Positions 1 through 21,617 of a stretch of 24,390 bases of DNA are shown piece by piece. Each line of letters begins with the position of its first letter. Within the stretch, counting starts at the first letter, position 1. Source of the DNA: Clostridia bacterium (GTDB lineage Bacteria; Bacillota; Clostridia; Christensenellales; Aristaeellaceae); contig JAKSQG010000005.1 in the NCBI GenBank assembly GCA_024404275.1, positions 1 through 24,390 on the forward strand. The letters run 5' to 3'. The translations under genes and the position numbers were made by a program. Below the pieces are notes generated by a model, which saw nothing but the letters and a program-made list of their open reading frames with translations, had not been told where the DNA came from and searched no databases.

Positions 1-1533
1 GACCTGAACTCCGCTGCCAACGGCTTGTTCCGTGTATTGCCGTCCGGCAGACTGCGTCCGCTCATCCGTTTGATTGCGTTTTTGGGTTACCGTAGCTGGA
101 AACCGGTGGAGCTGTTGGAGTATACCTGCGATATCACTGACAGTGAGAAGGAGCTGTCCGCTCAATTGAACAGCCTCAATACGGAGGGCTGGCTGGTGTG
201 GAATGAGGATGGTTACCTGATGCACCCCGTGATTGCGTAGAATCTGCGTCAGGAGCCGGGCGGCTGCGACGAGTATCCGAAGCTGTGGCAGAAGCTGAAC
301 AAAATGTTTGCGGAGCCCATGACTGAAAAAACGCAGGGCTTTGTACCGCAGGCCGAAAACCTGCTGCGCTATACCGCCAATCTGGACCGGACAGCGCTTT
401 CACTGATCATCGGGCTTGAACAAAGCGTCATGACCCGTCCCACGGGCAGCATTACTGATGATCTGCCCAAATTGCACCGCAAATGGCTTGATACCCATGA
501 GCATACGGCGGTGGATGAGATCGATTATCATATCATGCAGCTGCTGTGGGCGATACTGAGATCGCGCCCCGGGCAGTATCGTGACTCCGTGGAAATGCTG
601 AGCGCCTGTGAAGAAAAGGATCTTTTGAGCACTGCCAACTATTCGCTGCTGCTCAACGTACTGGAGGTTGGCGGCAAATATGCCGAACCGGAACAGCTGA
701 ACCTGCTGTTTGAACGGCTGCGGCCCGATGATGACAAACGGATGGTGGATTACTGCAACTTTCTTGGCGGCAAGCTGCGTGCTGTGGATCAGAATCAGCA
801 GCGTGCGGCGGAGGTGCTTCGCCAAGGGCGGGAGCTGATTGAAAAGCTCTGCCTGACGGGAACAGTGCAGGAGGCCGCCAACGATTCCCGCATGGCGTAT
901 ACGCTGGCGGATATGGGTCTGTGGTCGGAAACACTGCCGTTGATGCGCCGTGTGATGGACAACATGAAAACACGCGGTTATGCCGATGATTCGCCTACGG
1001 TGACCCCCATCCGCAGCACCTATTATTTTTTCCTCAGCAAGTGCGGGGAGTATCAGCAGACGCGAAAATAGCTTGGCGATCATCTGAAGCATGTGCTTGA
1101 GAAGGATGAACGTTTTGAAGCCGTCGTGAGGGCGTATACCTCCTATCTGCGCCTTCTGATGGATCACGATGAGTTTGAAGAGGGCGAAAAGATCGCCAGG
1201 AACCTGATTGCATACTGCCGCGGCTGCGTGAATTCAGACCCCGAATTGGAGGGCGAGGCCTTTCTGGCGGGCGGCCGGGTGCTGCTGCTGTGCAGTAAAC
1301 CGGCGGAAGCCATTGGCTTGCTGGCAGAGGCACAAGGCCTGTTTGAAAATGTGGACGAGGGCTCGGTTTTGCAATGCCGGTTCTACACTTCCCGCTGCCT
1401 TGCGGCACTGGGACATACTGAAAAGGCCTCTGCCATGCTGAAAAATGTGCACAATATGCTTCTGAAGCGGCACGAAGGCAACCGGAAACTGCTGACGCTG
1501 GTGGAGCAGGCAGAGGCTGAGGAAACAAAATAA
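1..1533 (+). CDS. 3' part of a large STAND/NTPase-like signalling protein: winged-helix-like segment followed by TPR-like helical repeats. The 5' end lies off-window. Read through two in-frame TAG codons (238-240, 1069-1071).
   Basis: Track ORFs 25-240 (open to position 1), 304-1071 and 1093-1533 are all in frame 1 and separated only by single TAG codons. There is no Shine-Dalgarno before ATG 304 or GTG 1093. Helical-repeat-like sequence continues across both junctions (..GWLVWNEDGYLMHPVIA[TAG]NLRQEP..; ..CGEYQQTRK[TAG]LGDHLKHVLEKDERF..). Final stop TAA 1531-1533. Under the standard code this is three fragments. Confidence 0.55.
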
Positions 1534-1558
1534 ACAAATCAGAAAGGAAACTGCCATC

Positions 1559-2593
1559 ATGAAAAAAGTATTGTCTTTGCTTCTGGGCCTGTTGCTGTTG
1601 TTTACCGTTGCCTGTGCCGATACGGTCTATGACCTGGATGGCGGTTTCCAAATCGCTCTGCCGGAAAACACCACGGTCTATTCCAACTGGTATTATGTTG
1701 ACAATGTGATGTTTTCTCTTACTGTGTACGAGTTGGCTGATTATGGTTACCAGCAGCAATGGCTGGACAGTTTGAAGGACACGGTGATGGAGACGCTGAC
1801 CGTGATGATGTTCGGAACAAATGACGGCTTTCAAAACGAAGAGATTGATGCCGGCATCCCCTGCGCTTCTTTCCAATACACCGAACAGGGATATGAATAC
1901 CGTATTGCACTGGCACTGAACGGAACAAAACTGCTGGCAGCGGTGATGACGGACAGTACTACGGGCAAATATCCCGATGAAGCAGTATGCCGCAGCATCC
2001 TGAATGCGATTTCTGTTCAAGCTCAGGAGAACGCGCAGACAAACACGCAGGCGAAAAACTATCTGACCGATCGTGGATTTTATCTTCAGAATGGGCCGCT
2101 GCTGGTGGACCTGTCTGAAGACGAGTATAACATCGTGTATCAGGATATGCCGTATGACAGCCTGTCCGTTCAGCGCAGCGGCTATGCGTACAACCTGATC
2201 GACAGTGCGCTCAGGATGGGCGAGGGCACGGACATGATGATCTGGCGCCTCAATGAAAATGGCCTGACCGGTGAAAATGCCATGGTTTATATCCGTGCCA
2301 AAGAGAAAAAATACGATGCTTCAGATGATTCCCGCAGGTTCAGCCCTGCCGACCTGAAGACGTTGGCAGACGCAATCGCCGAAGTGATGTCCGCTTCCGG
2401 CACATATGACATTCAGGAGATCAATGGTATTCCGTATATCATTTTTCCTTTCGCCGGCGACAATCAGCTTCGCAGCGTGGCGGTCATCAACGGCGGCTAT
2501 GTTTACATCTATGTGAAAAAGACGAATCCGCTGACCGCGGCAGATGTGGATTTCTTCTATACCGTGCTGGAGCACATTACAGTGGCCGATTGA
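1559..2593 (+). CDS. Putative lipoprotein / secreted protein of unknown function
   Basis: 344-aa ORF. GAAAGGAAA lies upstream of the ATG. N-terminal signal peptide MKKVLSLLLGLLLLFTVAC has a lipobox-like TVAC. Stop TGA, followed by an intrinsic terminator. Confidence 0.85.
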   Translation: MKKVLSLLLGLLLLFTVACADTVYDLDGGFQIALPENTTVYSNWYYVDNVMFSLTVYELADYGYQQQWLDSLKDTVMETLTVMMFGTNDGFQNEEIDAGIPCASFQYTEQGYEYRIALALNGTKLLAAVMTDSTTGKYPDEAVCRSILNAISVQAQENAQTNTQAKNYLTDRGFYLQNGPLLVDLSEDEYNIVYQDMPYDSLSVQRSGYAYNLIDSALRMGEGTDMMIWRLNENGLTGENAMVYIRAKEKKYDASDDSRRFSPADLKTLADAIAEVMSASGTYDIQEINGIPYIIFPFAGDNQLRSVAVINGGYVYIYVKKTNPLTAADVDFFYTVLEHITVAD

Positions 2594-2619
2594 ACAGAAT
2601 AACAGCGTTCCATGCATAC

Positions 2620-2656
2620 ATCCCCGTACTCCGGAAGGAGCGGGGATTTTTCATTT
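2620..2656 (+). terminator. Rho-independent terminator after the lipoprotein gene
   Basis: ATCCCCG(TA)CTCC-GGAA-GGAGCGGGGAT hairpin (2620-2647) followed by a TTTTT run. Confidence 0.7.
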
Positions 2657-2681
2657 ACAAATCGGCGGAATTGTTGTGAAA

Positions 2682-2725
2682 GTATGCTGAAAGCATACCA
2701 ATCCGGATACGGTTTATGCTATACT
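2682..2725 (+). promoter_or_regulatory. Candidate operator palindrome plus extended -10 promoter upstream of the HTH-kinase-LRR genes
   Basis: Perfect inverted repeat GTATGCT-GAA-AGCATAC at 2682-2698. TG-n-TATACT extended -10 at 2717-2725, with the half-site-like TATGCT repeated at 2715-2720. No good -35. Confidence 0.35.
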
Positions 2726-2757
2726 GAACACAGAAACAGGATGAAAGAAAAGAGTAT

Positions 2758-3237
2758 GTGATGCTTGTGTCAGGAAAAAACGCCATGGACAAACCGAATA
2801 AACGTTTTTCGACCGATGAACTGACCAATGGTATTTTGCGTACGCGGGATTTTAAACGCTATCTGAACAGCCATGCCGAAGCTCTGCAGGAGGTTTCACT
2901 GCGGGAATATCTGGAGCAGCTCCTCCGTGAAAAGGGCTTGAAACGAGCGGAGGTGATTCAGCGTGCCAATCTGGACCGGGTGTTTGGATATCAGATTTTT
3001 GATGGACGCAAATCGCCCTCGCGGGACAAGGTACTGCAGCTGGCCATCGGGTTTGGCTTGAATTATTCATAGACCTGCGAACTTTTGCGCATCGCCCGAA
3101 AAACCGCCCTCTATGCCCGGCTCAAACGGGAGGCCATTCTGATTTACGCCATCGGGCATGGGCTTTCCGTGATGGAAACCCAGTATCTGCTGATGGAAGC
3201 CGAATTGACTCCTTTGGGACAGGAGAAGGACAGATGA
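2758..3237 (+). CDS. XRE-like helix-turn-helix transcriptional regulator, read through in-frame TAG 3070-3072
   Basis: Track ORF 2758-3072 ends at TAG inside the conserved C-terminal segment of this HTH family. The same frame continues TCELLRIARKTALYARLKREAILIYAIGHGLSVMETQYLLMEAELTPLG to TGA 3235-3237, which overlaps the kinase ATG 3234-3236 (ATGA). The start is uncertain (GTG 2758, ATG 2761 or ATG 2785). Confidence 0.72.
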
Positions 3238-4127
3238 AGGATTTTGATGTGGTGGCTTCCCTGCAGGAGGCGCTGAATGGCATCGAGGACCCGCTGCCGG
3301 AGGAAATTGCGGCGGACTGGGAAGCCATGGAATGCCTTGGGCACAGCGAAAGAGGGGAAACGCTTTTGCTGTACAGCAGGAAGAGTGCAGGGAAAGCGGT
3401 TCTGAAGCTGATGCAGGGAGAAAGCGATGATGCCGGTCCCGTGGAAAAACTGCAGATGCTTACGCATCCGGGTCTGCCAAAGGTGCTTCGTGCATGGAAG
3501 GATGGCGAAAGGCTGTGCATCCTGCGGGAGTATATTGAAGGAAGAACACTGGCAGATACAGAAGGTAACTTCTCCGAGTCAAAGGCAACGGATATCATCC
3601 TGCAGCTGTGTGATGTTCTGTCGTATCTGCATGGGCAAACGCCGCCGCTGATTCACCGGGATGTAAAGCCCGAAAACATTCTGCTGCGCGAGGATGGAAC
3701 GATCGCGCTCATTGATTTTGGTATTGCCCGCTTTTATAATGGACAGCACGAAAAAGATACACGTGTGATGGGAACGGAGCATTTTGCTCCGCCGGAGCAA
3801 TACGGCTTTCGTCAGACCGATTGCCGGTCGGATCTGTATGCGCTGGGCATGGTGCTGGGGTGGATGCTGACAGGCAGTGTACATCGTGAGGAATACGAAG
3901 CAATTGCCGACAGCAACCTGAAAAGAATCGTAAAAAAGTGCACGGCTTTTTCCCCCGAAGATCGCTTTTCTTCTGCTATAGAAGTAAAAAAAGCGCTGAG
4001 TCAACGGAAAAGCCCACGGAAGACGCTGATTGTGACGGCAGTGTGTTGGTCTGCCTTTTGCTGCTTGGAAGAATGCCGTTATTTGGGCAAAGCGGACCGA
4101 AACACATCTGCTTCACGGAACCGATGA
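3234..4127 (+). CDS. Hanks-type Ser/Thr protein kinase with a C-terminal hydrophobic segment
   Basis: Motifs HRDVKPENILL, IDFGIA and GTEHFAPPE. AGGAGAAGG lies upstream of the ATG. Stop TGA 4125-4127. The C-terminal tail after ~4040 may be out of frame (see the finding on the GT repeat). Confidence 0.9.
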   Translation: MKDFDVVASLQEALNGIEDPLPEEIAADWEAMECLGHSERGETLLLYSRKSAGKAVLKLMQGESDDAGPVEKLQMLTHPGLPKVLRAWKDGERLCILREYIEGRTLADTEGNFSESKATDIILQLCDVLSYLHGQTPPLIHRDVKPENILLREDGTIALIDFGIARFYNGQHEKDTRVMGTEHFAPPEQYGFRQTDCRSDLYALGMVLGWMLTGSVHREEYEAIADSNLKRIVKKCTAFSPEDRFSSAIEVKKALSQRKSPRKTLIVTAVCWSAFCCLEECRYLGKADRNTSASRNR

Positions 4128-4945
4128 TTGAGCAGGCGATCAGAAAAATGCTCGGCACCGGCAGCGAGTCCGTCCTGAACCGGGAGGAACTGGAAAAGGT
4201 CGAGGGGCTTTATATTTTCGGCGATGTGATCGCCATGAATGAAGATGAGTTTTATGAAGCGGCCAATCGTTGGTACGCCGGCGGCAGCAGGCTATATGGC
4301 ACAATCACGCGGCTGGATGATGTTGTACTTCTGCCAAATCTTCGACGGGTGATGATTGCCGCCAATGAGGTTGAGAATATCTCGCCTTTGTCTGCACTGA
4401 CCAAATTGGAAAAGGTGGAATTCAAGCATAACCGCATCAGCGACATTACGCCGCTGAAGGGGCTGAAGATGCTTTGTTCTGTGGGCTTGAACGACAACCC
4501 CGTGACCGATGTGACGGTGCTGCTGACGCTGCCGGAACTTCGTTATCTGGATTTGTGTGACGCCTCTGCTTATGATGCGGTTGGGTTGGCAGGGCTTCAT
4601 GATATGGAGCTGCTGGATATTTCCAATCGTACCGACAGCGGACGGTACCTTGGCACAAAACATATCCGTGATCTGAGGATGGGATGGACAAATCTGGACA
4701 GCCTGGACGCGCTTGCCGGGGTGATGGGGCTTGAAAGATTGAGCATTGAGCATACACGCATTACCAGTTTGGAAGGCATTGAACGCCATGCGGGACTGAC
4801 CTATCTGCGTATGTCCGGTTGTGAGGTGAAGAATCTGACGCCGCTTCTATTGCTTCCTGAACTGAAGACACTGGTCATTGACGGTGCCCGCCGGGGGGAT
4901 GTGGAAGTGCTGGGTGAAGTGCGTTTTGAGGTGCTGTATGAATGA
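4124..4945 (+). CDS. Leucine-rich-repeat (internalin-like) protein; possibly the detached ectodomain of the preceding kinase
   Basis: About 22-residue LRRs (..NRISDITPLKGLKMLCSVGLNDNPVTDVTVLLTLPELRYLDL..). ATG 4124 overlaps the kinase TGA (ATGA). The frame is open from 3938 and looks coding from ~4040. Stop TGA 4943-4945. Confidence 0.75.
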   Translation: MIEQAIRKMLGTGSESVLNREELEKVEGLYIFGDVIAMNEDEFYEAANRWYAGGSRLYGTITRLDDVVLLPNLRRVMIAANEVENISPLSALTKLEKVEFKHNRISDITPLKGLKMLCSVGLNDNPVTDVTVLLTLPELRYLDLCDASAYDAVGLAGLHDMELLDISNRTDSGRYLGTKHIRDLRMGWTNLDSLDALAGVMGLERLSIEHTRITSLEGIERHAGLTYLRMSGCEVKNLTPLLLLPELKTLVIDGARRGDVEVLGEVRFEVLYE

Positions 4946-5159
4946 CCCAAAGAGAAAAAAGAGAATGAAAAACCAGATGAAACGGAAAGCCGCCCTGCTG
5001 CTGTAGACTTTTGCGAGCGCGGCGAAGCGGTGGAACGCCTGATGGAATCACAATGAGCGGTGGATATATGCGAAAGGAGGATGAAAATACCGCAGCACAG
5101 AATGGAAAGGAACCGCAAAACACGAAAAGAAGCAATGAAAAATGAGGAGGAAAAAGGAT

Positions 5160-6227: not shown

Positions 6228-6234
6228 AGCACAC

Positions 6235-6271
6235 AAAAACAGCAGGTCTTATCACAATGACCTGCTGTTTT
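6235..6271. terminator. Bidirectional intrinsic terminator between convergent genes
   Basis: AAAACAGCAGGTC (6236-6248) pairs perfectly with GACCTGCTGTTTT (6259-6271) across a 10-nt loop. A-run and T-run flanks serve both strands. Confidence 0.8.
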
Positions 6272-6295
6272 AATGCTTTTTGGTTCATTCGGCCA

Positions 6296-7714
6296 TCAAA
6301 GCGGCGGAATAGCGTCCAAAATGGTTTTTTCCAACGCTTCGCGGCCGTAGCTATCCACGGCAGCCTTGTTCTTTTCACCGTGGGTCAGGTTGCCGGCGCC
6401 GCCGATGCAGCCGCTGATACAGGCCATGCCTTCGATAAAGTTAGCGTCCAAGGCATTATGGGCTTTTTTGATAAGCGCCATGCGACACTCCTCAATACCG
6501 TCACAGACGCAGGCCTTCAGCTGGAAGTCATCCAGATGCTGTTCCTTCAGTCCTTCGGCAACGGCATCGCTCAGACCGCCGCTGCGGGCAAAAATGCGGC
6601 CGAAGTAGCTGGCGTTATTCAGCACATCCTCGGGCAGGGTGGTAATATCGATATCACGGCTGTCGAGCAGTGCCTGCAATTCTTCAAAGGTGATGACGGC
6701 ATCCACATAGGGTTTGACGTCTTCCAACTGTGCTTCGGCCTTTTTCGCGGTGCAGGGACCGATAAATACGATCTTGGCGGTTTCATCATGGTCCTTGATA
6801 TATTTGGCAAGGGTAGCCATGGGCGAGAGATTGTGAGAAATATAGGGCACCAGCGCCGGGAAGGCGGTTTTGACATAGCGGACAAAGGCCGGGCAGCAGG
6901 AGGAGGTCAGGAAGCCTTTTTCCACCAATTCCTTGGATTCCGCCTGGGCAACCATATCAGCGCCCAAAGCGGCTTCGATGACGGTATGGAAGCCCAGCTC
7001 CTTGATGCCGCTGATGACCTGTCCCAGCTTGGCATAATTGAGCTGGCTGCCGATGGCAGGAGCTACCAGGGCATAGACTTTGAATACGCTGTTGTCCTGG
7101 CTTTTTTTCAGCATATCGATCACATTGATGATAAAGGAACGATCCGTAATGGCACCAAAGGGGCACTGATACACACAGGCACCGCACTGAATGCATTTTT
7201 CATCATCGATCTTGGCAGCATTGTCATCATTGATGGAAATGGCCTTGATCTTGCAGGCGTTCTGGCAGGGACGCTTGCGGTTGACGATGGCGCTGTACGG
7301 ACACACCTTGGCGCACTGACCGCATTCCACACACTTGGATTTGTCAATGTGCGCTTCGTGATTGTGGTCAAAGGAGATAGCGCCGCGCTTGCAGACATCC
7401 TCGCAACGGTGGGCCAGACAGCCGCGGCAGGAATCGGTCACCTGATAGCCGACGGCAGGGCAGTCATCACAGGCGATATCAATGACTTGAATGATATTGT
7501 CTCCATTACCGCCTCCCATCGCCAGCTTGACGCGTTCAGCCAGGATGGCGCGTTCCTTGTACACGCAGCAGCGCATGGTGGGGACTTTGCCCGGCACGAT
7601 CATTTTGGGAATGTCCAGCACGTTTTCCAGCAGTGTGTCATTCCATGCCTGACGGGCGACTTCGCGCAGCACCTTGTATTTCAGATATTGTACCTTGGTA
7701 TCAAATTTGCGCAT
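6296..7714 (-). CDS. [FeFe] hydrogenase homologue with ferredoxin-like 4Fe-4S domains (HfsD-like)
   Basis: H-cluster motifs TSSCCPAF, GPCTAKKAE and EGMACISGCIGGAG. Several CxxCxxCxxxCP ferredoxin motifs. AAGGAG RBS. Stop TGA. Confidence 0.85.
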   Translation of the reverse strand: MRKFDTKVQYLKYKVLREVARQAWNDTLLENVLDIPKMIVPGKVPTMRCCVYKERAILAERVKLAMGGGNGDNIIQVIDIACDDCPAVGYQVTDSCRGCLAHRCEDVCKRGAISFDHNHEAHIDKSKCVECGQCAKVCPYSAIVNRKRPCQNACKIKAISINDDNAAKIDDEKCIQCGACVYQCPFGAITDRSFIINVIDMLKKSQDNSVFKVYALVAPAIGSQLNYAKLGQVISGIKELGFHTVIEAALGADMVAQAESKELVEKGFLTSSCCPAFVRYVKTAFPALVPYISHNLSPMATLAKYIKDHDETAKIVFIGPCTAKKAEAQLEDVKPYVDAVITFEELQALLDSRDIDITTLPEDVLNNASYFGRIFARSGGLSDAVAEGLKEQHLDDFQLKACVCDGIEECRMALIKKAHNALDANFIEGMACISGCIGGAGNLTHGEKNKAAVDSYGREALEKTILDAIPPL

Positions 7715-7723
7715 GCGTTCTCC

Positions 7724-8893
7724 TTAAAAATAGCTTACTTTGATTCGTTTACCCATTTTTTTGAGGGCTTGGGACAATTCTTCCACCAAATTCATTTTGA
7801 TGTTGAAGTTGATGGGCAGGTTGGGGTTCTGATGCGCCGGGTTGACGGCTCTGCCTACATAGAAATTGATGTCGGTGGCTTCTTCAAAAAGCAGACGGCT
7901 GATGAGGCAGGCACCGTCCTTGCCGTTGCTCCAGGTCTCATAACACAGGTTATCGCCCGTGTAATCCTTGGCGTATTCCACCACACGGTTGATGGTGATC
8001 ACGCCTTCCGTTACCAGATCGACGCCCTCCAGATAGGCAATGGGCGGAATGTCGCTGTCAAAGTCCAAAGAAGCCCTCAGGGGCTTGTTCAGCCATTTGG
8101 CGGCGATGGAGGAGGTGGTGCCGCCGCAGACGATGTGCTTTCCTTCCTTGGAGAAGAACAGGCTCATCATGCGGTCACCGTCATCACGGTTGCTGGGCGG
8201 TCCGAAGAGCAGATTCATGGGCACGCGCTTGCGGACACGGACCACACAGGAGGTGGCATCATCCCCGGGCTCGCCGCCATACAGCTCATTGCATTTATCC
8301 ACCAACAGGGTGGAAAGGTTCTTGGCGGTATAGCCGCACAGATTCATGGCCTCCATGAAGGGGATGATATCTTCCCGCTTCCAGCCGAAGTTATAGGCAA
8401 TGCCGATGCCTGCGTGGGGGCAGCCGTCGCTCATGGCGATAAAAACATCGTCTTCCTGCAGCCGGATGAGGGAACGGAAGATCTGTTTGCCGCCGATGGT
8501 GCTCTCTGTGCGTGGATATTCATAGTTTTCACCGTTGCGCAGCATGATGACCTGCGGGTTATCATACTGGATCAGCTCTGCCGTCTGATTGCGGATCAGG
8601 CGGATGATGGTGAAGGTGGAATAGGCGACGCCGCGGATGGAGCAGACGGGCAGCGTGGCGGCAATGGTTTCCACGCATTCCTCGATGGAAAGCCCGGCAG
8701 CCAGCATGGTGGAAATGATCTTGCTGGTCAGGGTGGACAGAATGCTGGCTTTGACACCGCTGCCAAGCCCATCTGCCAGCACGATGACGGTGGAGCCGTC
8801 TTCCTGTTCCACAATTTCCACATGATCGCCGCAAAGCTGCTCGCCGGCGTGATTGATGCTTTTGTAGCCGATATCACACGTCAGGTCATTCAT
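7724..8893 (-). CDS. SpoIIE/PP2C-family protein phosphatase (HfsC-like)
   Basis: N-terminal GDHVEIVEQEDGSTVIVLADGLGSGVKASILS and ..AMSDGCPHAG.., DDATSCVVRV are PP2C/SpoIIE-type motifs. The start overlaps the hydS stop by 8 nt (ATGAATGA). Stop TAA. Confidence 0.85.
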   Translation of the reverse strand: MNDLTCDIGYKSINHAGEQLCGDHVEIVEQEDGSTVIVLADGLGSGVKASILSTLTSKIISTMLAAGLSIEECVETIAATLPVCSIRGVAYSTFTIIRLIRNQTAELIQYDNPQVIMLRNGENYEYPRTESTIGGKQIFRSLIRLQEDDVFIAMSDGCPHAGIGIAYNFGWKREDIIPFMEAMNLCGYTAKNLSTLLVDKCNELYGGEPGDDATSCVVRVRKRVPMNLLFGPPSNRDDGDRMMSLFFSKEGKHIVCGGTTSSIAAKWLNKPLRASLDFDSDIPPIAYLEGVDLVTEGVITINRVVEYAKDYTGDNLCYETWSNGKDGACLISRLLFEEATDINFYVGRAVNPAHQNPNLPINFNIKMNLVEELSQALKKMGKRIKVSYF

Positions 8894-10562: not shown

Positions 10563-10566
10563 GGCG

Positions 10567-10806
10567 TTACACCCTTGCTTTGATTACATTTTCGAAAAAG
10601 GTGGGAACAGTCTCGGGGGAAACGGAAAAGAATTCACCGTCTACCGTGACGCAAACGCCCTGCTGGCATTTGCCCATGCAGAATGTGCCGCCCAGCTCGA
10701 TCTTGTCACTGAGGTTTTCCTTCGCAATCAGCGCCTGAAGCTGCTCCACCACGGGACGAGAGCCTTTGATGTGGCAGGAAGAACCGATACAAACCGTAAC
10801 CTTCAT
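10567..10806 (-). CDS. Small thioredoxin-like [2Fe-2S] ferredoxin (HfsA-like)
   Basis: 79 aa with four Cys in VCIGSSCH ... FCMGKC. GGAG RBS 9 nt upstream of the ATG. Stop TAA 4 nt before the hydS ATG. Confidence 0.75.
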   Translation of the reverse strand: MKVTVCIGSSCHIKGSRPVVEQLQALIAKENLSDKIELGGTFCMGKCQQGVCVTVDGEFFSVSPETVPTFFENVIKARV

Positions 10807-11658: not shown

Positions 11659-11675
11659 CTTTTTTGTCCTCCTTC

Positions 11676-14378
11676 TCACAGCTTACGGCCGGGACGATAG
11701 GCTTTTTTCACCGCGTCGTTTCCCGGCTCGGCAATGTTAGCCTCAGTGGGCTTGGCCATCTCGGTAAAGTGCTTGCCGCCGTAATAGGCGTTCAGGTACA
11801 TCTGCTTGATCTCGCTCATCAGCGGATAGCGGGGATTGGCACCGGTGCACTGATCGTCAAAGGCCTGCTCCACCATGTCATCCAGTCTGGTCAGGAAATC
11901 CTGCTCATCGGGAACATAATCCTTGATAGTGGGCTTGATCCCCACATAAGCCTTCAGATTGTTGATCATCTGAATCAGGGCTTCCAGCTTTTCATGGTCG
12001 GTGCCCTGGTTAATTCCCAGCGCCTCGGCCACCTGCGCGTAGCGGCGCAAGGTATGGGGATGATCGTACTGAGGGAAGGTGCCCATCTTGGCAGGAGCTT
12101 CGCAGGCGTTGAAGCGCAGCACTTCTTCGATCATCAGAGCGTTGGCTACACCGTGAGGAATGTGATGGAAAGCACCCAGCTTGTGCGCCATGGAGTGGCA
12201 GACACCCAGGAAGGCGTTGGCAAAGGCCATGCCGGCCATGGTGGCTGCATTAGCCATTTTCTCACGAGCTTCCACATCTGTCAAGCCATTGTCATAGGCT
12301 TGAGGCAGATATTCAAAAATGGTTTGCAAAGCTTTGATGGCAAGGCCATCTGTATAGTCCGTCGCCATCATGGAGGCATACGCTTCAAGGGCGTGGGTGA
12401 CGGCGTCGATGCCGCTGGCGGCGGTCAGACCCTTGGGAGCGGTCATATGGAAATCGGTATCGATGATCGCCATGTTGGGCAGCAGAGCATAATCGGCAAG
12501 GGGATATTTGACACCGCTCTTTTCGTCGGTGATGACGGCAAAGGGCGTTACCTCACTGCCGGTACCGGCGGAGGTGGGAATGGCGACAAAATAGGCCTTT
12601 TCGCCCATCTTGGGGAAGGTATAAACACGCTTGCGGATATCCATGAAGCGCATGGCCATGTCCTGGAAATCCACTTCGGGATGCTCGTACAGCACCCACA
12701 TGATTTTGCCGGCGTCCATGGCGCTGCCGCCGCCCAGAGCGATGATCACATCGGGCTGGAACAGACGCATCTGTTCCGCGCCGGCCTTGGCGCAAGCCAG
12801 GGTGGGATCGGGCGCGACGTCAAAGAAGGTTGCGTGCTGAATGCCCAGTTCATCCAGCTTCTTGGTGATGGGGGCGGTGTTTCCGTTGTGATAAAGGAAA
12901 GAGTCGGTGACGATAAAGGCCTTCTTTTTGCCCATAACTTGCTTCAGTTCGTCCAGCGCCACCGGCAGGCAGCCCTTTTTGATATACACCTTCTCCGGCG
13001 TACGGAACCACAGCATGTTTTCTCTCCTTTCAGCCACGGTTTTGATGTTCAGCAGGTGCTTGACGCCCACGTTTTCGGATACGGAGTTGCCGCCCCAGCT
13101 GCCGCAGCCGAGGGTGAGCGAGGGGGCCATCTTGAAGTTATACAGATCGCCGATACCGCCCTGCGAGGAGGGGGTGTTGACCACGATACGGCAAGTCTTC
13201 ATCTTGGCGGCAAAGGCATCCAGCACATCGGGCTTCTTCTGCGTATCGATGTACAGGGAGGCAGTGTGACCGTAGCCGCCATCGGCAATCAGACGATCGG
13301 CTTTGGCGAAGGCATCATCCAGATCCCTGGCACGGTACATGGCCAGCACGGGGCTCAGCTTTTCATGGGCAAACTCTTCACTGAGGTCCACAGATTCCAC
13401 TTCACCGATGAGCACCTTGGTGCCTTCGGGAATGGTGACACCGGCCAGCGCGGCGATCTTACAGGCGCTCTGACCGACGATCTTGGCGTTCAGGGCACCG
13501 TTGATCAGGATGGTGTGGCGCACCTTGTCCAGATCGGCACCGGTCAGGAACCAGCAGCCTCTTTGAGCAAATTCGGCTTTCACCTGATCGTAAATGCTGT
13601 CCAGCACGATCACGCTCTGCTCGGAAGCGCAGATCATGCCGTTATCAAAGGTCTTGGAATGGATGATGGAGTTGACAGCCAGCACAACATTGGCACTGTC
13701 ATCGATGACAGCAGGCACGTTGCCCGCACCGACGCCCAGTGCCGGCTTGCCGCTGGAATAAGCCGCCTTGACCATGCCGGGACCGCCGGTGGCCAGAATG
13801 ATATCGGCTTCGCGCATGACCATGTTGGTCATTTCCAGAGAAGGGACATCGATCCAGCCGATGATGCCTTCAGGAGCGCCGGCTTTGACCGCAGCATCCA
13901 GTACCACCTTGGCAGCGGCAATGGTGGCCTTCTTGGCGCGGGGATGGGGGCTGAAAATGATGCCGTTGCGGGTCTTGAGGCAGATCAAAGCCTTGAAGAT
14001 GGCGGTAGAGGTCGGGTTGGTCGTGGGGATGACGGCGGCGACCACGCCAATGGGCTCAGCCAGCTTTTTGATGCCGTAGGCTTTGTCCTCCTCGATGACG
14101 CCGCAGGTCTTGGTATCGCGGTAAGCGTTGTAAATATATTCACTGGCATAGTGATTTTTGATGACTTTGTCTTCCACTACGCCCATGCCGGTTTCTTCAA
14201 CGGCCAGCTTGGCCAGAGAAATACGGGCCTGATTGGCAGCGGTGGCAGCGGCCAGGAAAATGCGGTCCACCTGCTCCTGAGTATAGGTCGCATAGATGCG
14301 CTGCGCTTCGCGTACGCGCTTAATGGCGGCTTCCAGCGCTTCGGTGTTGTCCACCAGATCAAATGCTTTGGTTTCCAT
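11676..14378 (-). CDS. adhE: Bifunctional acetaldehyde-CoA / alcohol dehydrogenase
   Basis: 900 aa. ALDH domain with catalytic FDNGMICASEQ. Fe-ADH domain with GGGSAMDAGK and His-rich metal motifs. AGGAGG lies 6 nt before ATG 14378 (the track ORF begins 38 codons upstream). Stop TGA. Confidence 0.97.
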   Translation of the reverse strand: METKAFDLVDNTEALEAAIKRVREAQRIYATYTQEQVDRIFLAAATAANQARISLAKLAVEETGMGVVEDKVIKNHYASEYIYNAYRDTKTCGVIEEDKAYGIKKLAEPIGVVAAVIPTTNPTSTAIFKALICLKTRNGIIFSPHPRAKKATIAAAKVVLDAAVKAGAPEGIIGWIDVPSLEMTNMVMREADIILATGGPGMVKAAYSSGKPALGVGAGNVPAVIDDSANVVLAVNSIIHSKTFDNGMICASEQSVIVLDSIYDQVKAEFAQRGCWFLTGADLDKVRHTILINGALNAKIVGQSACKIAALAGVTIPEGTKVLIGEVESVDLSEEFAHEKLSPVLAMYRARDLDDAFAKADRLIADGGYGHTASLYIDTQKKPDVLDAFAAKMKTCRIVVNTPSSQGGIGDLYNFKMAPSLTLGCGSWGGNSVSENVGVKHLLNIKTVAERRENMLWFRTPEKVYIKKGCLPVALDELKQVMGKKKAFIVTDSFLYHNGNTAPITKKLDELGIQHATFFDVAPDPTLACAKAGAEQMRLFQPDVIIALGGGSAMDAGKIMWVLYEHPEVDFQDMAMRFMDIRKRVYTFPKMGEKAYFVAIPTSAGTGSEVTPFAVITDEKSGVKYPLADYALLPNMAIIDTDFHMTAPKGLTAASGIDAVTHALEAYASMMATDYTDGLAIKALQTIFEYLPQAYDNGLTDVEAREKMANAATMAGMAFANAFLGVCHSMAHKLGAFHHIPHGVANALMIEEVLRFNACEAPAKMGTFPQYDHPHTLRRYAQVAEALGINQGTDHEKLEALIQMINNLKAYVGIKPTIKDYVPDEQDFLTRLDDMVEQAFDDQCTGANPRYPLMSEIKQMYLNAYYGGKHFTEMAKPTEANIAEPGNDAVKKAYRPGRKL

Positions 14379-14438
14379 ACTGTTCCTCCTCTTGCTTGTA
14401 CATAGCCCAAGCATTGCGTTGAAAGGTTTTTCGTTCCT

Positions 14439-14577: not shown

Positions 14578-14591
14578 ATAAGGGAAGGCGA

Positions 14592-15518
14592 TTACTTATT
14601 TTGCCCAATGCAGGCGCGCTTGGATTGCATCAGGTCGGTCAGGAAGGTTTTGTCCAGCTTGGTCAGGTGATAGTCATGACGGTAAATCAGCATATCGCGG
14701 TAAATGCGTCGCTGATCGGCGCATTCCCTTTGCACCAGGTGAAAGCGCTGCAAAAGCCTTTCCGGAAGGGGAGATACCCACATGAAAGTTTGGGGATTTT
14801 CGGACAAAAGGTCCAGCTGACTTCCCCGCTCAAAGACAAAAATGCGCCGGGGCGTTTGCGGCAGCTCTTCCTCCCGGACGGCAGAAAGCGGCAGGGAAGG
14901 CACTGTGGGATCGGCATGGGCGATTTGAATACAGGACTTCAGATCGGAAAAATGGATGCTGTCGAGGGCGGCAAGGGGGCTGCTCTCATGCATGACCAGA
15001 ACATATCTGAATTCCGAAATCAGCTCGCACTGCAGCCCTTTTTCCTCCAACAGCTGCCGGAAGTGTTTATCATGAGCGCTCGCGTAGCGGATGATGCCCA
15101 GACGGTATCCGGATTCGAGAATGTTTTTGATGGCCTGCAGGGAGTTGGTTTCCTGATAGAAGATCTCTGCCTCTTCTTCTCCCAGCGAGCGGGAAAAAGC
15201 GGAAAAGGCATCCGAAATATAACTGGCCCGGGGAACGGAGATGGAGAATTCCAGCTTTTCCGCTCTTCCCTTATACAGGCTTTCCATCTCTTCCACCTGT
15301 TCCAGAATCTTGCGGGCACGGCTGATAAACAGCGCGCCGTCCGGCGTCAGCAGCATGCCCTTGGGGGAACGGCGGAAAAACTGGATGCCAAGATCGGCTT
15401 CCATTTCCCGGACAATCCTGCTCAGGTTGGGTTGTGCGACATGCAGTTCTTCGGCAGCTTTGTTGATCGAGCTGTTTTCGGCGATGGAGACCACGTATTT
15501 CATGTGAAGCAGATTCAT
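14592..15518 (-). CDS. LysR-family transcriptional regulator
   Basis: N-terminal HTH MNLLHMKYVVSIAENSSINKAAEELHVAQPNLSRIVREME..; 308 aa, the typical LysR length. GAGG RBS. Stop TAA. Confidence 0.93.
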   Translation of the reverse strand: MNLLHMKYVVSIAENSSINKAAEELHVAQPNLSRIVREMEADLGIQFFRRSPKGMLLTPDGALFISRARKILEQVEEMESLYKGRAEKLEFSISVPRASYISDAFSAFSRSLGEEEAEIFYQETNSLQAIKNILESGYRLGIIRYASAHDKHFRQLLEEKGLQCELISEFRYVLVMHESSPLAALDSIHFSDLKSCIQIAHADPTVPSLPLSAVREEELPQTPRRIFVFERGSQLDLLSENPQTFMWVSPLPERLLQRFHLVQRECADQRRIYRDMLIYRHDYHLTKLDKTFLTDLMQSKRACIGQNK

Positions 15519-15778
15519 GCGGAGATACCTCGTATCAGATGGCGAAATTGGATGATTGCTGCAGAAGGGAACGATCCGAAGAGCCGGCGCTTTTCAAAAT
15601 CCGGTCCTTTGCCGGAAGTGTCCGGCTTGTAGTTTCTCAGCGCGCAATGGGGAGTAAAGGTGCTTCTGCAGGGTGCTCTTTCATGGCAGATTGCAGCGGC
15701 TTGGATCATCCGCAGCTATTATAGCATACAATGCATAAATATAGAAGGAAAATACGGTCTTTTTGTCCGGAATCCTGC

Positions 15779-17388: not shown

Positions 17389-17420
17389 CGAGGATCGGTC
17401 GGGAAGGGAGATGACTGCCG

Positions 17421-18590
17421 GTGAACTATCGGGTTACGGATGGGGTGCTGACGCTGTTTCCGCAAGGCCGGATCGACTCCGGCAATGCAGACAGCACGGA
17501 AAAGGAAATGCGGGCTGTGTGCGTGGCAAACGCCGTCCCGGGACTCATACTTGACCTTGAAAAACTGGCGTATATCTCCAGCGCCGGGCTTCGGGTGGTG
17601 CTGCGGCTGCGCAAGGACTATCCTGAAATGAAAATGATCAATGCTTCCGCCGAAGTATATGACATTCTGGATATGACCGGTTTTACCGAAATGATCCCGG
17701 TGAGCAAGGCGTATCGCCGCCTGAGCATTGAGGGATGCGAGATGATCGGTCAGGGGGCAAACGGCACGGTATACCGTCTGGATGGGGAGACCGTGATCAA
17801 GGTGTACCGCCATGCCGACAGCTTGCCGGAAATCCGGAGAGAAAGAGAACTTGCCCGCAAGGCATTCGTGGCAGGTCTGCCGACTGCTATCCCCTATGAT
17901 GTGGTACGTGTCGGGGAGGGCTATGGCTCGGTGTTTGAAATGCTGAATGCCGGTTCAGTGGCCGATATCCTCAAAAAGGAGCCATAGCGACTGCCGGAGT
18001 GCGCGCACATGATGACCACACTGCTGAAGAAGATCCATGCTACTGAGTTAAAGCCCGGGGAATTTCCCGATGCAAGGCAGACAGCCCTGGACTGGGCGGA
18101 TTTTTTGCAGGACCATCTTCCGCGTGAGCAGTATCAGAAGCTGCGTGGACTGATCGAGGCAGTGCCGCGGGATACGCATGTGCTGCATGGGGATTGTCAT
18201 GTGAAGAATGTGATGATCCAGAATGGGGAGACGCTGCTGATTGACATGGACACCCTGTGTCAGGGGCATCCGGTGTTTGAGTTTGCGGCGATCTATATCG
18301 ATTATCAGGGATACGGCGAACTGAATTCCGAAGATGTCACGACATTTTTCGGCATCCCTCATGAAATCTGCGCGGAATTGATGCGTTTGATCATTGTAGA
18401 GTATTTTGAACTGAAAGAGGAAGCCGCCTACCGCGCAATACTGGACAAGGCGCGCGTAATCGGCTATGCACGGCTGATGCGCCGTACCATCCGCCGGATG
18501 GGGCATACGGAACAAGGAAAGCAGCTGGCTGCCTACTACGCAGAGCGGCTGACGGAGCTGCTGGACTGTGTGGATTCACTGACATTTTAA
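17421..18590 (+). CDS. STAS (anti-sigma-antagonist-like) domain fused to an APH/protein-kinase-fold domain, read through in-frame TAG 17985-17987
   Basis: Track ORFs 17421-17987 and 18009-18590 share a frame. STAS motif LAYISSAGLRVVL. Kinase N-lobe IGQGANGTVYRL..VIKVY lies before the TAG. Catalytic HGDCHVKNVMI and LIDMD lie after it. GTG start with GGGAAGGGAG upstream. Stop TAA. Confidence 0.7.
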
Positions 18591-18607
18591 AGAAAGAAGG
18601 ATCGAAT

Positions 18608-18904
18608 ATGAACATTACCAAGAATCAGAACGGCGAACTGCTTGAAATGGCGCTGGAAGGACGACTGGATACGGTGACCTCTCCCAAGCTTGAAAAGGAA
18701 CTGAGCACTTCTCTGAACGGCATCAAGGAATTGGTGTTCGATTTTGCCAAGCTTGAGTATGTTTCCTCCGCCGGTCTGCGTGTACTGCTGACGGCGCAGA
18801 AGGTGATGAATACACAGGGCAGCATGAAGGTGTGCCATGTGAATGAAAACATCATGGAAGTATTTGAAATTACCGGCTTTGCGGATGTGCTGACCATTGA
18901 ATAA
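18608..18904 (+). CDS. STAS-domain protein (RsbV/SpoIIAA-like anti-sigma factor antagonist)
   Basis: 98 aa with LEYVSSAGLRVLL (phosphorylatable-Ser motif). GAAGGA upstream of the ATG. Stop TAA. Confidence 0.9.
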   Translation: MNITKNQNGELLEMALEGRLDTVTSPKLEKELSTSLNGIKELVFDFAKLEYVSSAGLRVLLTAQKVMNTQGSMKVCHVNENIMEVFEITGFADVLTIE

Positions 18905-18946
18905 GCAGCGGGACAACTCGTAGCATCGGCAAGGGAGATATGGAGA

Positions 18947-19762
18947 ATGACGACGGAAGAACTGCTGAAAACGGTGGAAGAGATTCATGTGCCTTTGGAG
19001 GACACCTACCTGAATGTCATCCGCTTTGGACGTGGAAAAAAAGTGCTTGCGTTGCTTTCGGGTGTCAGCCTGTGCGGTCTGGAGGGAGCGGGAGCAGGCG
19101 TTGCGGCTGCTTACGCCGATTTTGCGGAGGAGTATACGGTTTATCTGTTCGACCGCAAAAAGCTGCTGCCAAAGGGCTATCAGGTGGCGGACATGGCGGA
19201 GGATGTTTATCGGGTGCTCTGCACCTTTGGCATTCAGGAAGCCGACGTGTACGGCGTCTCCCAGGGCGGCATGATGGGACTCAGCCTGGCACTGGCGCAC
19301 CCCGGTCTGGTGCGGAAGCTGGCACTGTGTTCTACCCAGGCTCGGGCGGGAAGCGTCATGCGTTAGACCGTTGCCGAGTGGCTGCAATATGCCAGACGAG
19401 GGGACACAGCAGGCATTCAGCGTTGCTTTGCGGAAAAAGTCTACTCACCGGCTTACCGTGAAAAGTACGCATCGGCTTTCCGGGCTATGGAGCAGCAGGG
19501 ATCGGCTGAAGACTGCGCCCGTTTTGTGGTATAGGCGGAGGCATGCCTCACTTTTTGCGTTTATGAAGAGCTGGACCGGATCCATTGTCCCGCGCTGGTG
19601 CTGGCGGATGTGAATGACCGTGTGATCGACGTGTCCTCTGCCCGGGAGCTGGCGCATGGGTTGAACTGCCCGCTGCAGTTGTATGATCAATACAGCCACG
19701 CGGTGTTTGATGAAGCGCCCGAAGTAAAACAGCGGGTGCTGAACTTCCTGCGGCAGGAATGA
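18947..19762 (+). CDS. Alpha/beta-fold hydrolase (RsbQ-like size and context), read through two in-frame TAG codons (19364-19366, 19532-19534)
   Basis: Track ORF 18947-19366 carries the nucleophile elbow YGVSQGG. The same frame continues through both TAGs to ..CPALVLADVNDRVI..LYDQYSHAVFDEAPE..FLRQE and TGA 19760-19762. That supplies the Asp and His of a catalytic triad. The merged protein is 271 aa. Confidence 0.75.
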
Positions 19763-19826
19763 ATTCCGCGGCGGAGCGTTTAAGCAACGGTGCGGATAGA
19801 ACAATGCGTTACAGGAGTTGATCTTT

Positions 19827-21617
19827 ATGAAGCTGCCGCTGCAACGGCATCCAAAGGAATCCTACAGTACCATGACGCGGGCAGTACTGTGGCAGAATGA
19901 AATAGAAGCCAACCGACTGACCACGGTTTTTATGTGCATCTGTTCGGCGGTCATGGCACTCAGTATGCTGCTGACGGCTGTTGGTATTTTTACGGAGAAT
20001 GCGCAGACAGTGTATACCACGGGCATCGCGACGATCGTGTGGCATATGCTGCCGTGCCTGGTGAGCTTTCGATACAAATACGCAAAGCCGTGGCTGAAGA
20101 ACCTGCTGCTGGCGGGGTTGATTCTGGGACAGGCACGATTGGACTGCGGGCTGGGTTTCAATACGGCACTTTCCATACTGATTCCGGTTGTGTTCAGTAC
20201 GCGGTATTACTCCCGAAAGTTTACGCTTTCCGTGGCTGCCATTACGACCGTGGTGTTTTCTGTCACGACCTATCTGGGCGCTGCGACGGGCTTTACCCCG
20301 GTGGATAAAAATATTCTTCTGGAAGCGTCCCGGTATGCGCATGATGTCATGATGACCAGCTTTCTTCCCAAGTGGTTTTTATTTGCGGTCATCTCGGCTG
20401 TGTGCGCGGAGGTTGCCCACTGGGGGCGTGCTATGGTTGAAAAGCAGGCCGTCATCAGTCAGGAGCATAGCCGTGTGGAAACGGAGCTGCATACGGCAAC
20501 CCAGATTCAGTTGAAATCGCTTCCCGATGTGAAAACGCTGTGCGAAGGACATGAGGCTCCCTTTGAACTGGCGACCAGCATCCTTCCGGCCAAAGAGGTC
20601 GGCGGCGATTTTTACGATTTCTTCTATGTTGACCCAACGCACCTGGCATTGGTCATTGCAGATGTTTCCGGCAAAGGCGTGCCGGCAGCGCTGTTTATGA
20701 TGGTTTCTAAAATCCTGCTGGATAACAGCGCTTCCGCAGGGCGAACGCCCGGCAAGGTGCTGACGATGGTCAACCATCAGCTTTGCGAAAAAAACATCAT
20801 TGACATGTTTGTGACAGTGTGGCTGGGCATCATCGACTTGACCACCGGCGAAATTGTCAGTGCCAACGCGGGACATGAGAACCCCATCATTTGTCGTAAG
20901 GACGGCACTGTGGAAGTCATCCGTACCAAGCACGGCATGGTGCTGGGCGGCATGGAAGGCATGCGTTACCGGGATGAAACCCTTCAGCTGCACCCCGGCG
21001 ATACGCTGTTTGTGTATACAGACGGCATCCCCGAAGCGCACAACAGCGCCGCGCAGATGTATGGCATGGAACGACTGGTTTCGGTGCTGACAGGCAAAAC
21101 ACAGATGAATGCGCAGGCCCTTGTGGACTTGGTGAAGCAGGATGTGAATGCTTTTGCCGGTTAGGCACCGCCGTTTGACGACTCGACCATGCTGGCGATT
21201 CGCCTGAATGGCCTTGTGAAGCGGGAGGGACTGCAGATTCGTCCCGACACGGCATCGGTCAGCACCGTGCAGGAGTATGTTGCGCAGGCAATGGAGCAAG
21301 CCGACATTCCCATGAAGCAGGCCACCAAGGTCAACATCGCATTGGATGAAATGTACAGCAACATTGTGCATTACAGCGGAGCGGGCTGGGCAGAGGTGAT
21401 CTGCCGGGCTGACAAAAGCGGGGTCACGCTCATCTTGCGGGATAACGGCGTGCCGTTCGATCCGCTGCAGAATGCCGCCCCTGACATCAATCAGAGCGCG
21501 GAAGAGCGCCGCATCGGCGGCCTTGGCGTGTTTATGACCCGCAAGATGATGGACGAGATGTGCTACCGCTATGCGGACGGATGCAATGAACTGACTATGA
21601 CGCTGAAGATCAGCTGA
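19827..21617 (+). CDS. Membrane-anchored PP2C (RsbU/SpoIIE-type) phosphatase fused to an RsbW/SpoIIAB-like HATPase domain, read through in-frame TAG 21162-21164
   Basis: Track ORFs 19818-21164 and 21189-21617 share a frame. N-terminal multi-TM region. PP2C motifs EVGGDFYDFF, ADVSGKGVPAALFM and VYTDGIPEA lie before the TAG; [TAG]APPFDDSTMLAIRL follows it. Then HATPase N-box DEMYSNIV, DNGVPFDP and GGLGVFM. AGGAG lies 9 nt before ATG 19827. Stop TGA. Confidence 0.75.

Follow-up and report, generated by a model that had tools for sequence, protein, structure and literature searches.

In-frame UAG codons in a Clostridia contig and its sister species point to a bacterial lineage that translates UAG, most probably as glutamate

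Introduction

All departures from the standard genetic code known so far in bacteria concern a single codon, UGA (Shulgina and Eddy 2021, PMC8629427; also the Actinomycetota paper and the gTranslate preprint). Genome-wide reading of TAG was first reported in archaea, as pyrrolysine (Pyl), under the name "Code 34" (Kivenson et al., bioRxiv 10.1101/2024.09.30.615893). Recoding of TAG to glutamine (Gln) is a phage trait, and TAG reassignment is otherwise found in eukaryotes and archaea. Reassignment of a stop codon to glutamate (Glu) is reported only in eukaryotes, among them Blastocrithidia, which reads UAR as glutamate. Here we analyze a 24,390-nucleotide (nt) metagenome-assembled contig of Clostridia bacterium (assembly GCA_024404275.1, contig JAKSQG010000005.1)—called the window below, meaning this whole stretch of DNA—in which in-frame TAG codons interrupt five otherwise intact genes. 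We conclude that TAG is very likely a sense codon in this lineage, and that Glu is the residue to which the evidence points.

How does this locus compare with the closest described systems? In meaning, the nearest are the codes of peritrich ciliates (NCBI table 30) and Blastocrithidia (NCBI table 31), which assign UAR to Glu by means of a tRNA-Glu with a stop-matching anticodon. In these codes, as would be the case in the window lineage, a stop codon is read as glutamate, and by analogy a mutated tRNA-Glu may do the reading here as well. However, they belong to eukaryotes and reassign both UAA and UAG, whereas the window lineage is a bacterium in which TAG alone is affected and TAA is a normal stop. 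In the bacterial system of release factors 1 and 2 (RF1 and RF2), unlike in the eukaryotic UAR codes, UAG alone can be freed by RF1 loss. Archaeal Code 34 is likewise a prokaryotic, genome-wide use of TAG as a sense codon, with a rare TAG, a patchy and recent distribution, and genes mis-annotated as fragments; it differs in its Pyl machinery and non-canonical residue, whereas the window lineage points to canonical Glu and has no pyl genes in the ~110 kb examined. The Lak and crAss-like gut phages (code 15) share amber specificity and a gut or rumen habitat, and carry CUA suppressor tRNAs (a phage feature), but their recoding concerns late phage genes in standard-code hosts; here the TAGs lie in chromosomal housekeeping and signaling genes, for example those adjoining AdhE and the hydrogenases, and Glu fits better than Gln. 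The bacterial UGA codes (table 4, UGA-to-Trp; table 25, UGA-to-Gly) are lineage-wide stop-to-sense changes in bacteria, in which the matching release factor is lost and a cognate suppressor tRNA is present, but the codon and its factor (UGA, RF2) and the amino acids differ from those of the window lineage. Finally, amber-free or RF1-deleted laboratory Escherichia coli strains (C321.deltaA etc.) are reported to be viable with UAG freed and reassigned through a suppressor tRNA; these strains are engineered, whereas the window lineage is natural, with TAGs that would have arisen by ordinary mutation and been kept by selection.

In literature to 2026 we found no report of a bacterial UAG-to-Glu code or of a UAG-sense bacterial lineage, although our coverage was incomplete and an earlier description is possible. 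This agrees with an earlier note on the window, made from its sequence, whose author knew of no described bacterium with general TAG sense decoding. If the reading proposed here is true, this lineage would be the first bacterium known to have reassigned UAG and the first case of a stop-to-Glu code beyond the eukaryotes, and would add a code table.

Results and Discussion

In-Frame TAG Codons in the Window

The real gene set of the window was fixed with Pfam scans of both strands, and compared with several related sequences. At the strain level, these were contigs L082 (SRR21150928, 98.4% nucleotide identity), L084 (SRR21150839, 97.5%), L085 (SRR28408152), and L089 (ENA ERZ27247129, 98.6%), together with L001, an ENA contig of 1 kb encoding a hydrolase with 95% protein identity. 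A sister species, GCA_045599485.1, is represented by contig JAZRWA010000035.1 (77 kb), of which 51.5 kb were read as L088, L083, and L086; it is syntenic with the entire window at 88–90% nucleotide identity. Comparisons were made on orthologue-by-orthologue codon alignments, generic scans (same-frame pairs of open reading frames [ORFs] and all-vs-all tblastn on 80–90 loci) being swamped by noise, as these genomes are rich in very long antisense ORFs. The lineage DNA examined comes to only ~110 kb in all.

Seven in-frame TAG codons lie in five otherwise intact genes of the window. The earlier note had located the same seven sites, and on rechecking every coordinate and frame was borne out:

1..1533, + strand: 3' part of a STAND NTPase (NB-ARC/AAA_16) and TPR gene, two TAGs read through; weak TPR_12 Pfam matches
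238..240, + strand: in-frame TAG of the STAND NTPase/TPR gene, common to the sister species (L086 9920) and to L084, L085, and L089
1069..1071, + strand: in-frame TAG of the STAND/TPR gene that varies within the species (the window and L089 TAG, L084 and L085 GAG; sister species GAA)
2758..3237, + strand: helix-turn-helix (HTH) regulator gene read through its TAG; HTH_31 Pfam match; 150-amino acid (aa) full-length homologues
3070..3072, + strand: in-frame TAG of the HTH (XRE-type) regulator; sister species also TAG (L086 12754)
17421..18590, + strand: STAS-APH (phosphotransferase) gene read through its TAG; Pfam APH at residues 109-292, the TAG being residue 189
17985..17987, + strand: in-frame TAG of the STAS-APH kinase, in the window lineage only; sister species GAT (Asp)
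18947..19762, + strand: alpha/beta hydrolase gene, two TAGs read through; Abhydrolase_1 at residues 76-258, the TAGs being residues 140 and 196
19364..19366, + strand: first in-frame TAG of the alpha/beta hydrolase; CAG in L001, GAG in the sister species
19532..19534, + strand: second in-frame TAG of the alpha/beta hydrolase; GAG in L001 and the sister species; Leu in 110/120 distant homologues
19827..21617, + strand: membrane PP2C phosphatase-HATPase gene read through its TAG; SpoIIE at residues 273-463 spans the TAG (residue 449), followed by HATPase_c_2
21162..21164, + strand: in-frame TAG of the PP2C (SpoIIE)-HATPase; TAG also in strain contig L082, AAG in the sister species

The earlier note's view that the TAGs cut single domains is confirmed in two ways. 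A single Pfam domain crosses the TAG in three of the five genes (the STAS-APH kinase, the hydrolase, and the PP2C-HATPase), and in the HTH regulator and the STAND/TPR protein continuity over the TAG is seen from full-length homologues. The start of the STAND gene is on a neighboring contig, outside the window, and its full-length orthologue in the sister species carries NB-ARC, AAA_16, and TPR_12 domains; the hydrolase family has intact 271-aa homologues. In the NCBI annotation, the TAG-separated pieces are listed as separate hypothetical or partial proteins (MCQ24530xx series). A recount of terminators, which includes a 79-aa gene at 10567-10806, gave the same result as the earlier one: the 21 complete genes end in 10 TAA and 11 TGA, and none in TAG. 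TAA is thus the normal terminator of 10 of the 21 genes and never occurs in-frame.

The Same Codon in Strains and in the Sister Species

Are the interruptions peculiar to one contig? They recur, some at the same sites and others at new ones. The sister species has at least 14 in-frame TAGs in its 51.5 kb and not one in-frame TAA or TGA, and no frameshift is found in its interrupted genes. Its genuine terminators (~40) are all TAA or TGA; gene calls that end at TAG there are internal sites. Together with the window (0/21) and L089 (0/7), this leaves no genuine TAG terminator in the lineage DNA. The sister TAGs are as follows:

L086 8828, 9050, 9920, 9995: STAND, four TAGs
L086 11440: 344-aa hypothetical protein; window codon CAA
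L086 12754: HTH regulator; window TAG (3070), common to both species
L086 19020: SpoIIE-like phosphatase; window codon GAA
L086 20110: HydS-like sensory hydrogenase; window codon CAG
L083 7999: STAS-APH kinase; window codon GAA
L088 16116: PP2C-HATPase paralogue; beyond the window
L088 17818, 17941, 17977, 18088: ABC exporter; beyond the window

Conversely, at the seven window sites the sister species has TAG at two (238 and 3070) and sense codons at five: GAA (1069), GAT (17985), GAG (19364), GAG (19532), and AAG (21162). The same gene can therefore carry different TAGs in different species, as in the STAS-APH kinase, where the sister TAG lies 52 codons upstream of the window site, at a position where the window has GAA. 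Three TAGs are common to both species (window 238, window 3070, and STAND column 227). A codon alignment of five STAND sequences has six TAG columns:

Column 153: sister TAG; window species GAG
Column 227: sister TAG; window species TAG in both sequences that cover the column
Column 517 (window 238): sister TAG; window species TAG in 4/4 sequences
Column 542: sister TAG; window species GAG
Column 617: sister CAG; window species TAG in L085 alone (position 1417), CAG otherwise
Column 794 (window 1069): sister GAA; window species TAG in the window and L089, GAG in L084 and L085

Two of these columns are polymorphic within the species, with GAG/TAG at window 1069 and CAG/TAG at L085 position 1417. 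Some TAGs thus predate the species split, while others segregate within a species. The TAGs recur in the NCBI metagenome-assembled genome (MAG), in Logan contigs of SRR21150928, SRR21150839, and SRR28408152, and in ENA ERZ27247129, and the surrounding sequences differ by 1–2.5%.

The sister ABC exporter (L088 16612-18291) is unusual in its TAG content. Its four TAGs fall within 90 codons of the ATPase domain, and its signature reads LSEG[TAG] in place of LSGGQ. The nucleotide-binding site may be degenerate, or the gene may be unusually tolerant of the new codon.

Selection Downstream of the TAGs and Their Uniformity

If TAG had stopped translation since before the two species split, the sequence downstream of a shared TAG should have drifted in both lineages; we see purifying selection instead. 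Past the shared TAG at 238, the ratio of non-synonymous to synonymous substitution rates (dN/dS) between window and sister is 0.081 over 430 codons, and past the shared TAG at 3070 it is 0.043 over 54 codons, with 12 synonymous and 2 non-synonymous differences (dS ~0.37-0.38 in both). Translation must therefore go on past the TAG, which excludes both pseudogenes and functional gene splits at these sites. The pattern holds across the TAG genes: pairwise dN/dS downstream of TAGs is 0.07-0.21, matching the upstream segments and the neighboring genes, at a dS of ~0.4 and with no indels. In the STAS-APH kinase, the three segments give 0.10, 0.014, and 0.21, again without indels; every segment of the hydrolase falls at 0.07-0.19, and the PP2C-HATPase gives 0.122 upstream and 0.143 downstream of its TAG.

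Could random nonsense mutation have produced only TAG? Window codon usage and the substitution spectrum at fourfold sites predict that random nonsense codons would be TAG in ~50%, TAA in 31%, and TGA in 18% of cases. On this expectation, seven TAGs among the seven interruptions in the window have p ~0.008, and for the ~23 independent in-frame sites over all related sequences, all of them TAG, p is ~1e-7. The earlier note had argued that neither random pseudogenization nor random error would leave TAG alone, and these numbers, the independent assemblies, and the purifying selection downstream all speak for that argument. So does the broader evidence for its central claim, that TAG is decoded as an amino acid: the sister species has TAGs of its own, three TAGs are conserved under selection, others are polymorphic, and none terminates a gene. 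We regard it as very likely that TAG is a sense codon in the window lineage.

Which Amino Acid?

Which residue does TAG stand for? The homologue columns favor an acidic one. At the HTH site (3070), Glu occupies 116 of 150 family representatives (Q 8, D 7), and the 85%-identical homologue P0274 has Glu. In the STAND protein, the column of window 238 is Glu in 6/6 distant homologues (37–40% identity; motif HPV[IL]AE) and that of 1069 is Glu in 4/5, while column 227 faces Glu in P0245 when read by eye (APMPREKY vs APLPS*KY). The TAG of the sister SpoIIE-like gene stands where its 12 closest relatives keep Glu. The four ABC-exporter TAGs fall, in alignments to PDB entries, on D/E, on the conserved E of "ENI," on a variable site, and on the Q of LSGGQ, and the TAG in a metallo-beta-lactamase (MBL) gene of L087, a more distant contig described below, faces E, D, and D in PDB homologues. 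The PP2C-HATPase column at 21162 is variable in its family (A, S, D, T, E). The residues that the earlier note gave for these positions in homologues were usually of Glu/Gln/Asp type; Glu indeed predominates, and a minority of sites have Q, K, D, or L.

Codon exchange between the two species tells the same story. Over 6,554 aligned codons, window vs sister, ten TAGs are not shared, and their partners encode E at six sites, Q at two, and D and K at one each. Partner profiles of codons that differ between the species compare as follows:

TAG: E 60%, Q 20%, D 10%, K 10%
GAG/GAA: E 73-76%, D 8%, Q 1-3%
CAG: Q 41%, R 17%, K 14%, E 5%

TAG thus exchanges in the manner of a Glu codon, unlike a Gln codon. 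If TAG were Gln, the synonymous CAG<->TAG transition would be dominant; because E partners outnumber Q partners ~3:1, Glu is favored. We also calculated expected partners from the measured codon counts and exchange rates, with an assumed acceptance of 0.1-0.2 for non-synonymous changes, so that the predictions are rough: for TAG=Glu they are E ~66%, Q 20%, and K 11%, near the observed values, and for a residue without synonymous codons (e.g., Pyl) they are Q 49%, K 29%, and E 22%, against an observed E of ~60%. The earlier note's guess of "Gln or Glu" can be narrowed. Glu is clearly the better fit, and Gln is disfavored by the partner counts (E 6 vs Q 2) and the Glu columns.

On these alignments and counts, Glu is the probable identity of TAG, with reasonable though not high confidence. 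Gln we consider unlikely, and Pyl or another residue at most as likely as that and probably less.

Proposed Mechanism and Rival Explanations

How might such a code work? We consider it probable, to nearly the same degree as sense decoding itself, that UAG is no longer a terminator and is translated, most probably as glutamate, both in the window species and in its sister GCA_045599485.1, and probably in L087 too. The fuller proposition—that these uncultured gut or rumen Clostridia have a chromosome with a new code, in which UAG is Glu, UAA and UGA are stops, and the change is recent and nested inside a standard-code clade—we favor only by a small measure. Under it, a tRNA with anticodon CUA would be charged with Glu; its likely origin would be a duplicated tRNA-Glu(CUC) in which C36 changed to A. 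In many Firmicutes, a non-discriminating GluRS charges both tRNA-Glu (C36) and tRNA-Gln (G36), and charging of the CUA tRNA might be eased if the position-36 tolerance of such an enzyme extends to A36. RF1 would be lost or weakened, because it is the only factor that reads UAG. The alignments show that TAGs come and go through substitutions of one base, for the most part GAG<->TAG and more rarely CAG<->TAG, and the reassignment may have proceeded by codon capture or through an ambiguous intermediate, starting from a clade that uses TAG at only ~7% of gene ends.

Several observations weigh against this reading. No CUA-anticodon tRNA turned up in any of the lineage loci searched, and an Rfam scan found one tRNA only. 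The absence of TAG terminators is weak evidence by itself: for 0/21 in the window, p is ~0.2 given a background of 6.5-8% in relatives, and for 0 in the ~70 genes of both species it is only ~0.01 against a background of 6.5%. The assignment to Glu draws on ~20 sites and an approximate substitution model, and not every site conforms. One ABC-exporter TAG aligns with the Gln of LSGGQ, the sister HydS TAG replaces a Gln kept in seven close relatives, window 19532 is Leu in 110/120 distant homologues (though Glu in both near relatives), and window 21162 is Lys in the sister species. Furthermore, the one frameshifted gene in the window implies that some gene decay or assembly error is present.

Among readings in which TAG is translated, a code 15-like assignment to Gln, read by a tRNA-Gln(CUA), would account for the two nonconforming Gln sites just named and for the exchanges of TAG with CAG/CAA at window 19364 (in L001), L085 1417, and sister 11440 and 20110, and TAG-to-Gln is the commonest natural amber reassignment. 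Yet under this code most TAGs would be expected to derive from CAG by synonymous transition, whereas E partners exceed Q partners ~3:1; the homologue columns at the older, shared TAGs are Glu (HTH E 77% vs Q 5%; STAND E 6/6), and our own rough likelihood, with assumed acceptance rates, favors Glu by two to three orders of magnitude or more; we judge this code improbable. Genome-wide Pyl, a bacterial counterpart of Code 34 served by pylT, pylS, and pylBCD, is less probable again. The archaeal case, reported with proteomic support, shows a rare TAG and a sporadic distribution, the distribution here is also patchy (close relatives stop at TAG, while the more distant L087 has in-frame TAGs), and two TAGs align with Lys (window 21162 and the [FeFe] hydrogenase of L007, a rumen MAG). 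However, mostly Glu partners and conserved Glu/Asp columns are unexpected for a bulky lysine derivative without synonymous codons, as is the excess of E over the expected partner profile, and the gene tables of ~110 kb of lineage DNA contain no pyl genes and no methylamine methyltransferases. More tenable than either, but still unlikely, is ambiguous decoding, in which RF1 is kept and an amber suppressor tRNA reads TAG part of the time, giving a mixture of truncated and full-length products. The rarity of TAG (14 of ~13,100 aligned codons), its absence from AdhE and the catalytic hydrogenase and concentration in signaling genes—as expected if reading TAG is costly—and the youth of the reassignment would all suit it. 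But genes with three or four TAGs (STAND, the sister ABC exporter) would then yield almost no full-length product, and yet they are under strong purifying selection; nor is any genuine TAG terminator left in ~70 genes.

What if TAG is not translated at all? Ordinary nonsense mutations in decaying pseudogenes, or truly split genes, would agree with the frameshifted gene in the window, with the separate and partial proteins of the NCBI annotation, and with TAG being the commonest random nonsense outcome (~50%). We give this explanation very little credence, since ~23 independent interruptions are all TAG (p ~1e-7), the TAG genes lack indels, hundreds of codons past the shared TAGs evolve at dN/dS 0.04-0.08, the TAGs cut single domains, and one gene carries different TAGs in different species. 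An artefact of sequencing, assembly, or binning could be suspected because the window is a metagenome-assembled contig; with the same TAGs in independent assemblies from different runs and pipelines, and in different species, this is the least credible of all. Four further candidates were rejected: phage or plasmid origin (the gene context is housekeeping), selenocysteine-like local recoding (there is no common context, and the codon is different), methylation-linked base-calling error (no motif is shared, and the TAGs recur in independent Illumina-type assemblies), and functional split genes (single domains are cut, with up to four TAGs per gene).

We also looked for a suitable tRNA in metagenomes. 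A first, Glu-like tRNA(CUA) pattern had no match in the metagenome scan; a looser one gave six CUA tRNAs. Five were on contigs of low GC content, three of these within phage-like tRNA arrays, and none was linked to the lineage; the sixth was on a 1.8-kb contig of 58% GC, also without a link to it. Three arrays (L092, L096, and L097, JGI metagenome contigs of 27–34% GC; 25 tRNAs in L092) each include a CUA tRNA with a Glu-like D-arm and a 4-nt variable loop, and probably come from TAG-recoded phages.

Extent and Age of the Trait

How widely is the trait distributed, and how old is it? As an outgroup, we collected 80 GTDB relatives (L002-L081) through the APH gene. These are rumen and gut Clostridia MAGs, with a best APH identity of 88%; they are not syntenic for the five TAG genes and so serve only for stop usage and for columns in the conserved hydrogenase/AdhE/LysR block. 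There, 26 of 400 orthologous genes have a TAG stop that coincides precisely with the conserved C-terminus, including genes of the closest relatives L002, L005, L009, and L013. Close relatives thus stop at TAG and have the standard code, and the loss of TAG as a terminator is therefore a derived, recent trait of the window and sister lineage; standard-code relatives are ~90% identical to it in conserved proteins. Within the lineage, TAG is rare. The 14 TAGs among ~13,100 aligned codons amount to ~0.1% of codons and ~1.5% of Glu codons, and they are absent from AdhE and the catalytic hydrogenase and common in signaling and regulatory genes, in both window and sister.

Because the change is young, has standard-code relatives, and is accompanied by GAG/TAG polymorphisms, the lineage would offer an unusually direct view of the onset of a reassignment—its route, the first genes to accept the codon, and the fate of RF1. 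If the reading is true, natural capture of a codon that depends on RF1 is possible, matching what engineering has achieved in E. coli. There would be practical consequences as well. Annotation with table 11 fragments the genomes of a TAG-sense lineage, and code predictors based on coding density may overlook the change, a problem already noted with archaeal TAG recoding. A natural amber suppressor pair that charges Glu might be obtained from the lineage, and for TAG-recoded phages its recoding may be a barrier or a target.

Other sequences bear on the extent of the trait. L087 (Logan SRR28408220, 61% GC) has the STAS-hydrolase-PP2C synteny at 63–65% amino-acid identity. Three of its gene calls end at TAG (5127, 13959, and 20531); at least two of these are in-frame TAGs inside Fer4_5 and Lactamase_B domains, and the third separates a lipase from a YhhN-family gene that shares its frame. 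L087 may thus represent a second TAG-sense lineage. Its methyltransferase clusters at 90% identity with an "Aristaeellaceae bacterium" protein, a hint at that family. Two Hadza gut contigs, L090 and L091, belong with L087 to an rRNA methyltransferase cluster at 90% identity; in ~20 genes they show neither an in-frame TAG nor a TAG stop, and so neither widen nor narrow the clade. L091 does have an in-frame TGA (6982-6984) that splits a GH2 glycosidase, where the near-identical L090 has TGG; this is an ordinary nonsense polymorphism, in contrast to the TAG-only pattern. Finally, the rumen MAG L007 (RUG11012) has a TAG at 7833 in its catalytic [FeFe] hydrogenase ("GPCTAK[TAG]AE"), at a position that is Lys in 58/58 relatives; it is either a TAG-sense genome or a genome with a true nonsense mutation.

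Neighboring Genes and Other Features

One window gene that carries no TAG is frameshifted, so that the earlier note's statement that no frameshift is involved applies to the five TAG genes but not to the window at large:

3234..4945, + strand: Ser/Thr kinase-transmembrane-LRR gene with the sole frameshift in the window, a 1-nt deletion near 4043

Its kinase (3234-4127) and LRR (3938-4945) ORFs overlap in different frames, with Pkinase and LRR Pfam matches, one per frame. In the sister species the orthologue is one ORF of 570 aa, and aligning the two leaves a gap of 1 nt at window 4043, in the transmembrane-helix segment. The gene is either a real pseudogene or the result of an error in the MAG consensus.

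Six window genes are on the minus strand, encoding two [FeFe]-hydrogenase-type proteins, a SpoIIE-like protein, an APH kinase, AdhE, and LysR. Opposite minus-strand genes lie long antisense "shadow" ORFs of up to 913 aa without a Pfam match (6257-8899, 8919-10544, 11664-14405, and 14601-15632 on the plus strand, among others). Their cause is the great rarity of CTA, TTA, and TCA codons (2, 8, and 34 of ~13,100 aligned codons), and they can mislead ORF-based gene calling. Part of the minus-strand block (6296-10806) consists of a catalytic-type [FeFe] hydrogenase, a SpoIIE-like phosphatase, a HydS-like sensory hydrogenase with PAS, and a small 2Fe-2S thioredoxin-like protein. It adjoins the APH kinase and AdhE and is conserved across the 80 relatives, and from its gene content looks like a hydrogen-sensing regulatory module.

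Two features of the sister contig lie outside the aligned window. Between the ABC exporter and a Fic-domain gene, ~1.8 kb (L088 18300-20100) contain no ORF >100 aa on either strand and no Rfam match. Just past the position of the right end of the window (L083 14744-21791 / L088 5923-14379), genes for a PqqD-like protein, a radical SAM enzyme, small ORFs of 42-88 aa, and two C39-peptidase/ABC exporters form what looks, from the predicted proteins, like a cluster of the ribosomally synthesized and post-translationally modified peptide (RiPP) type.

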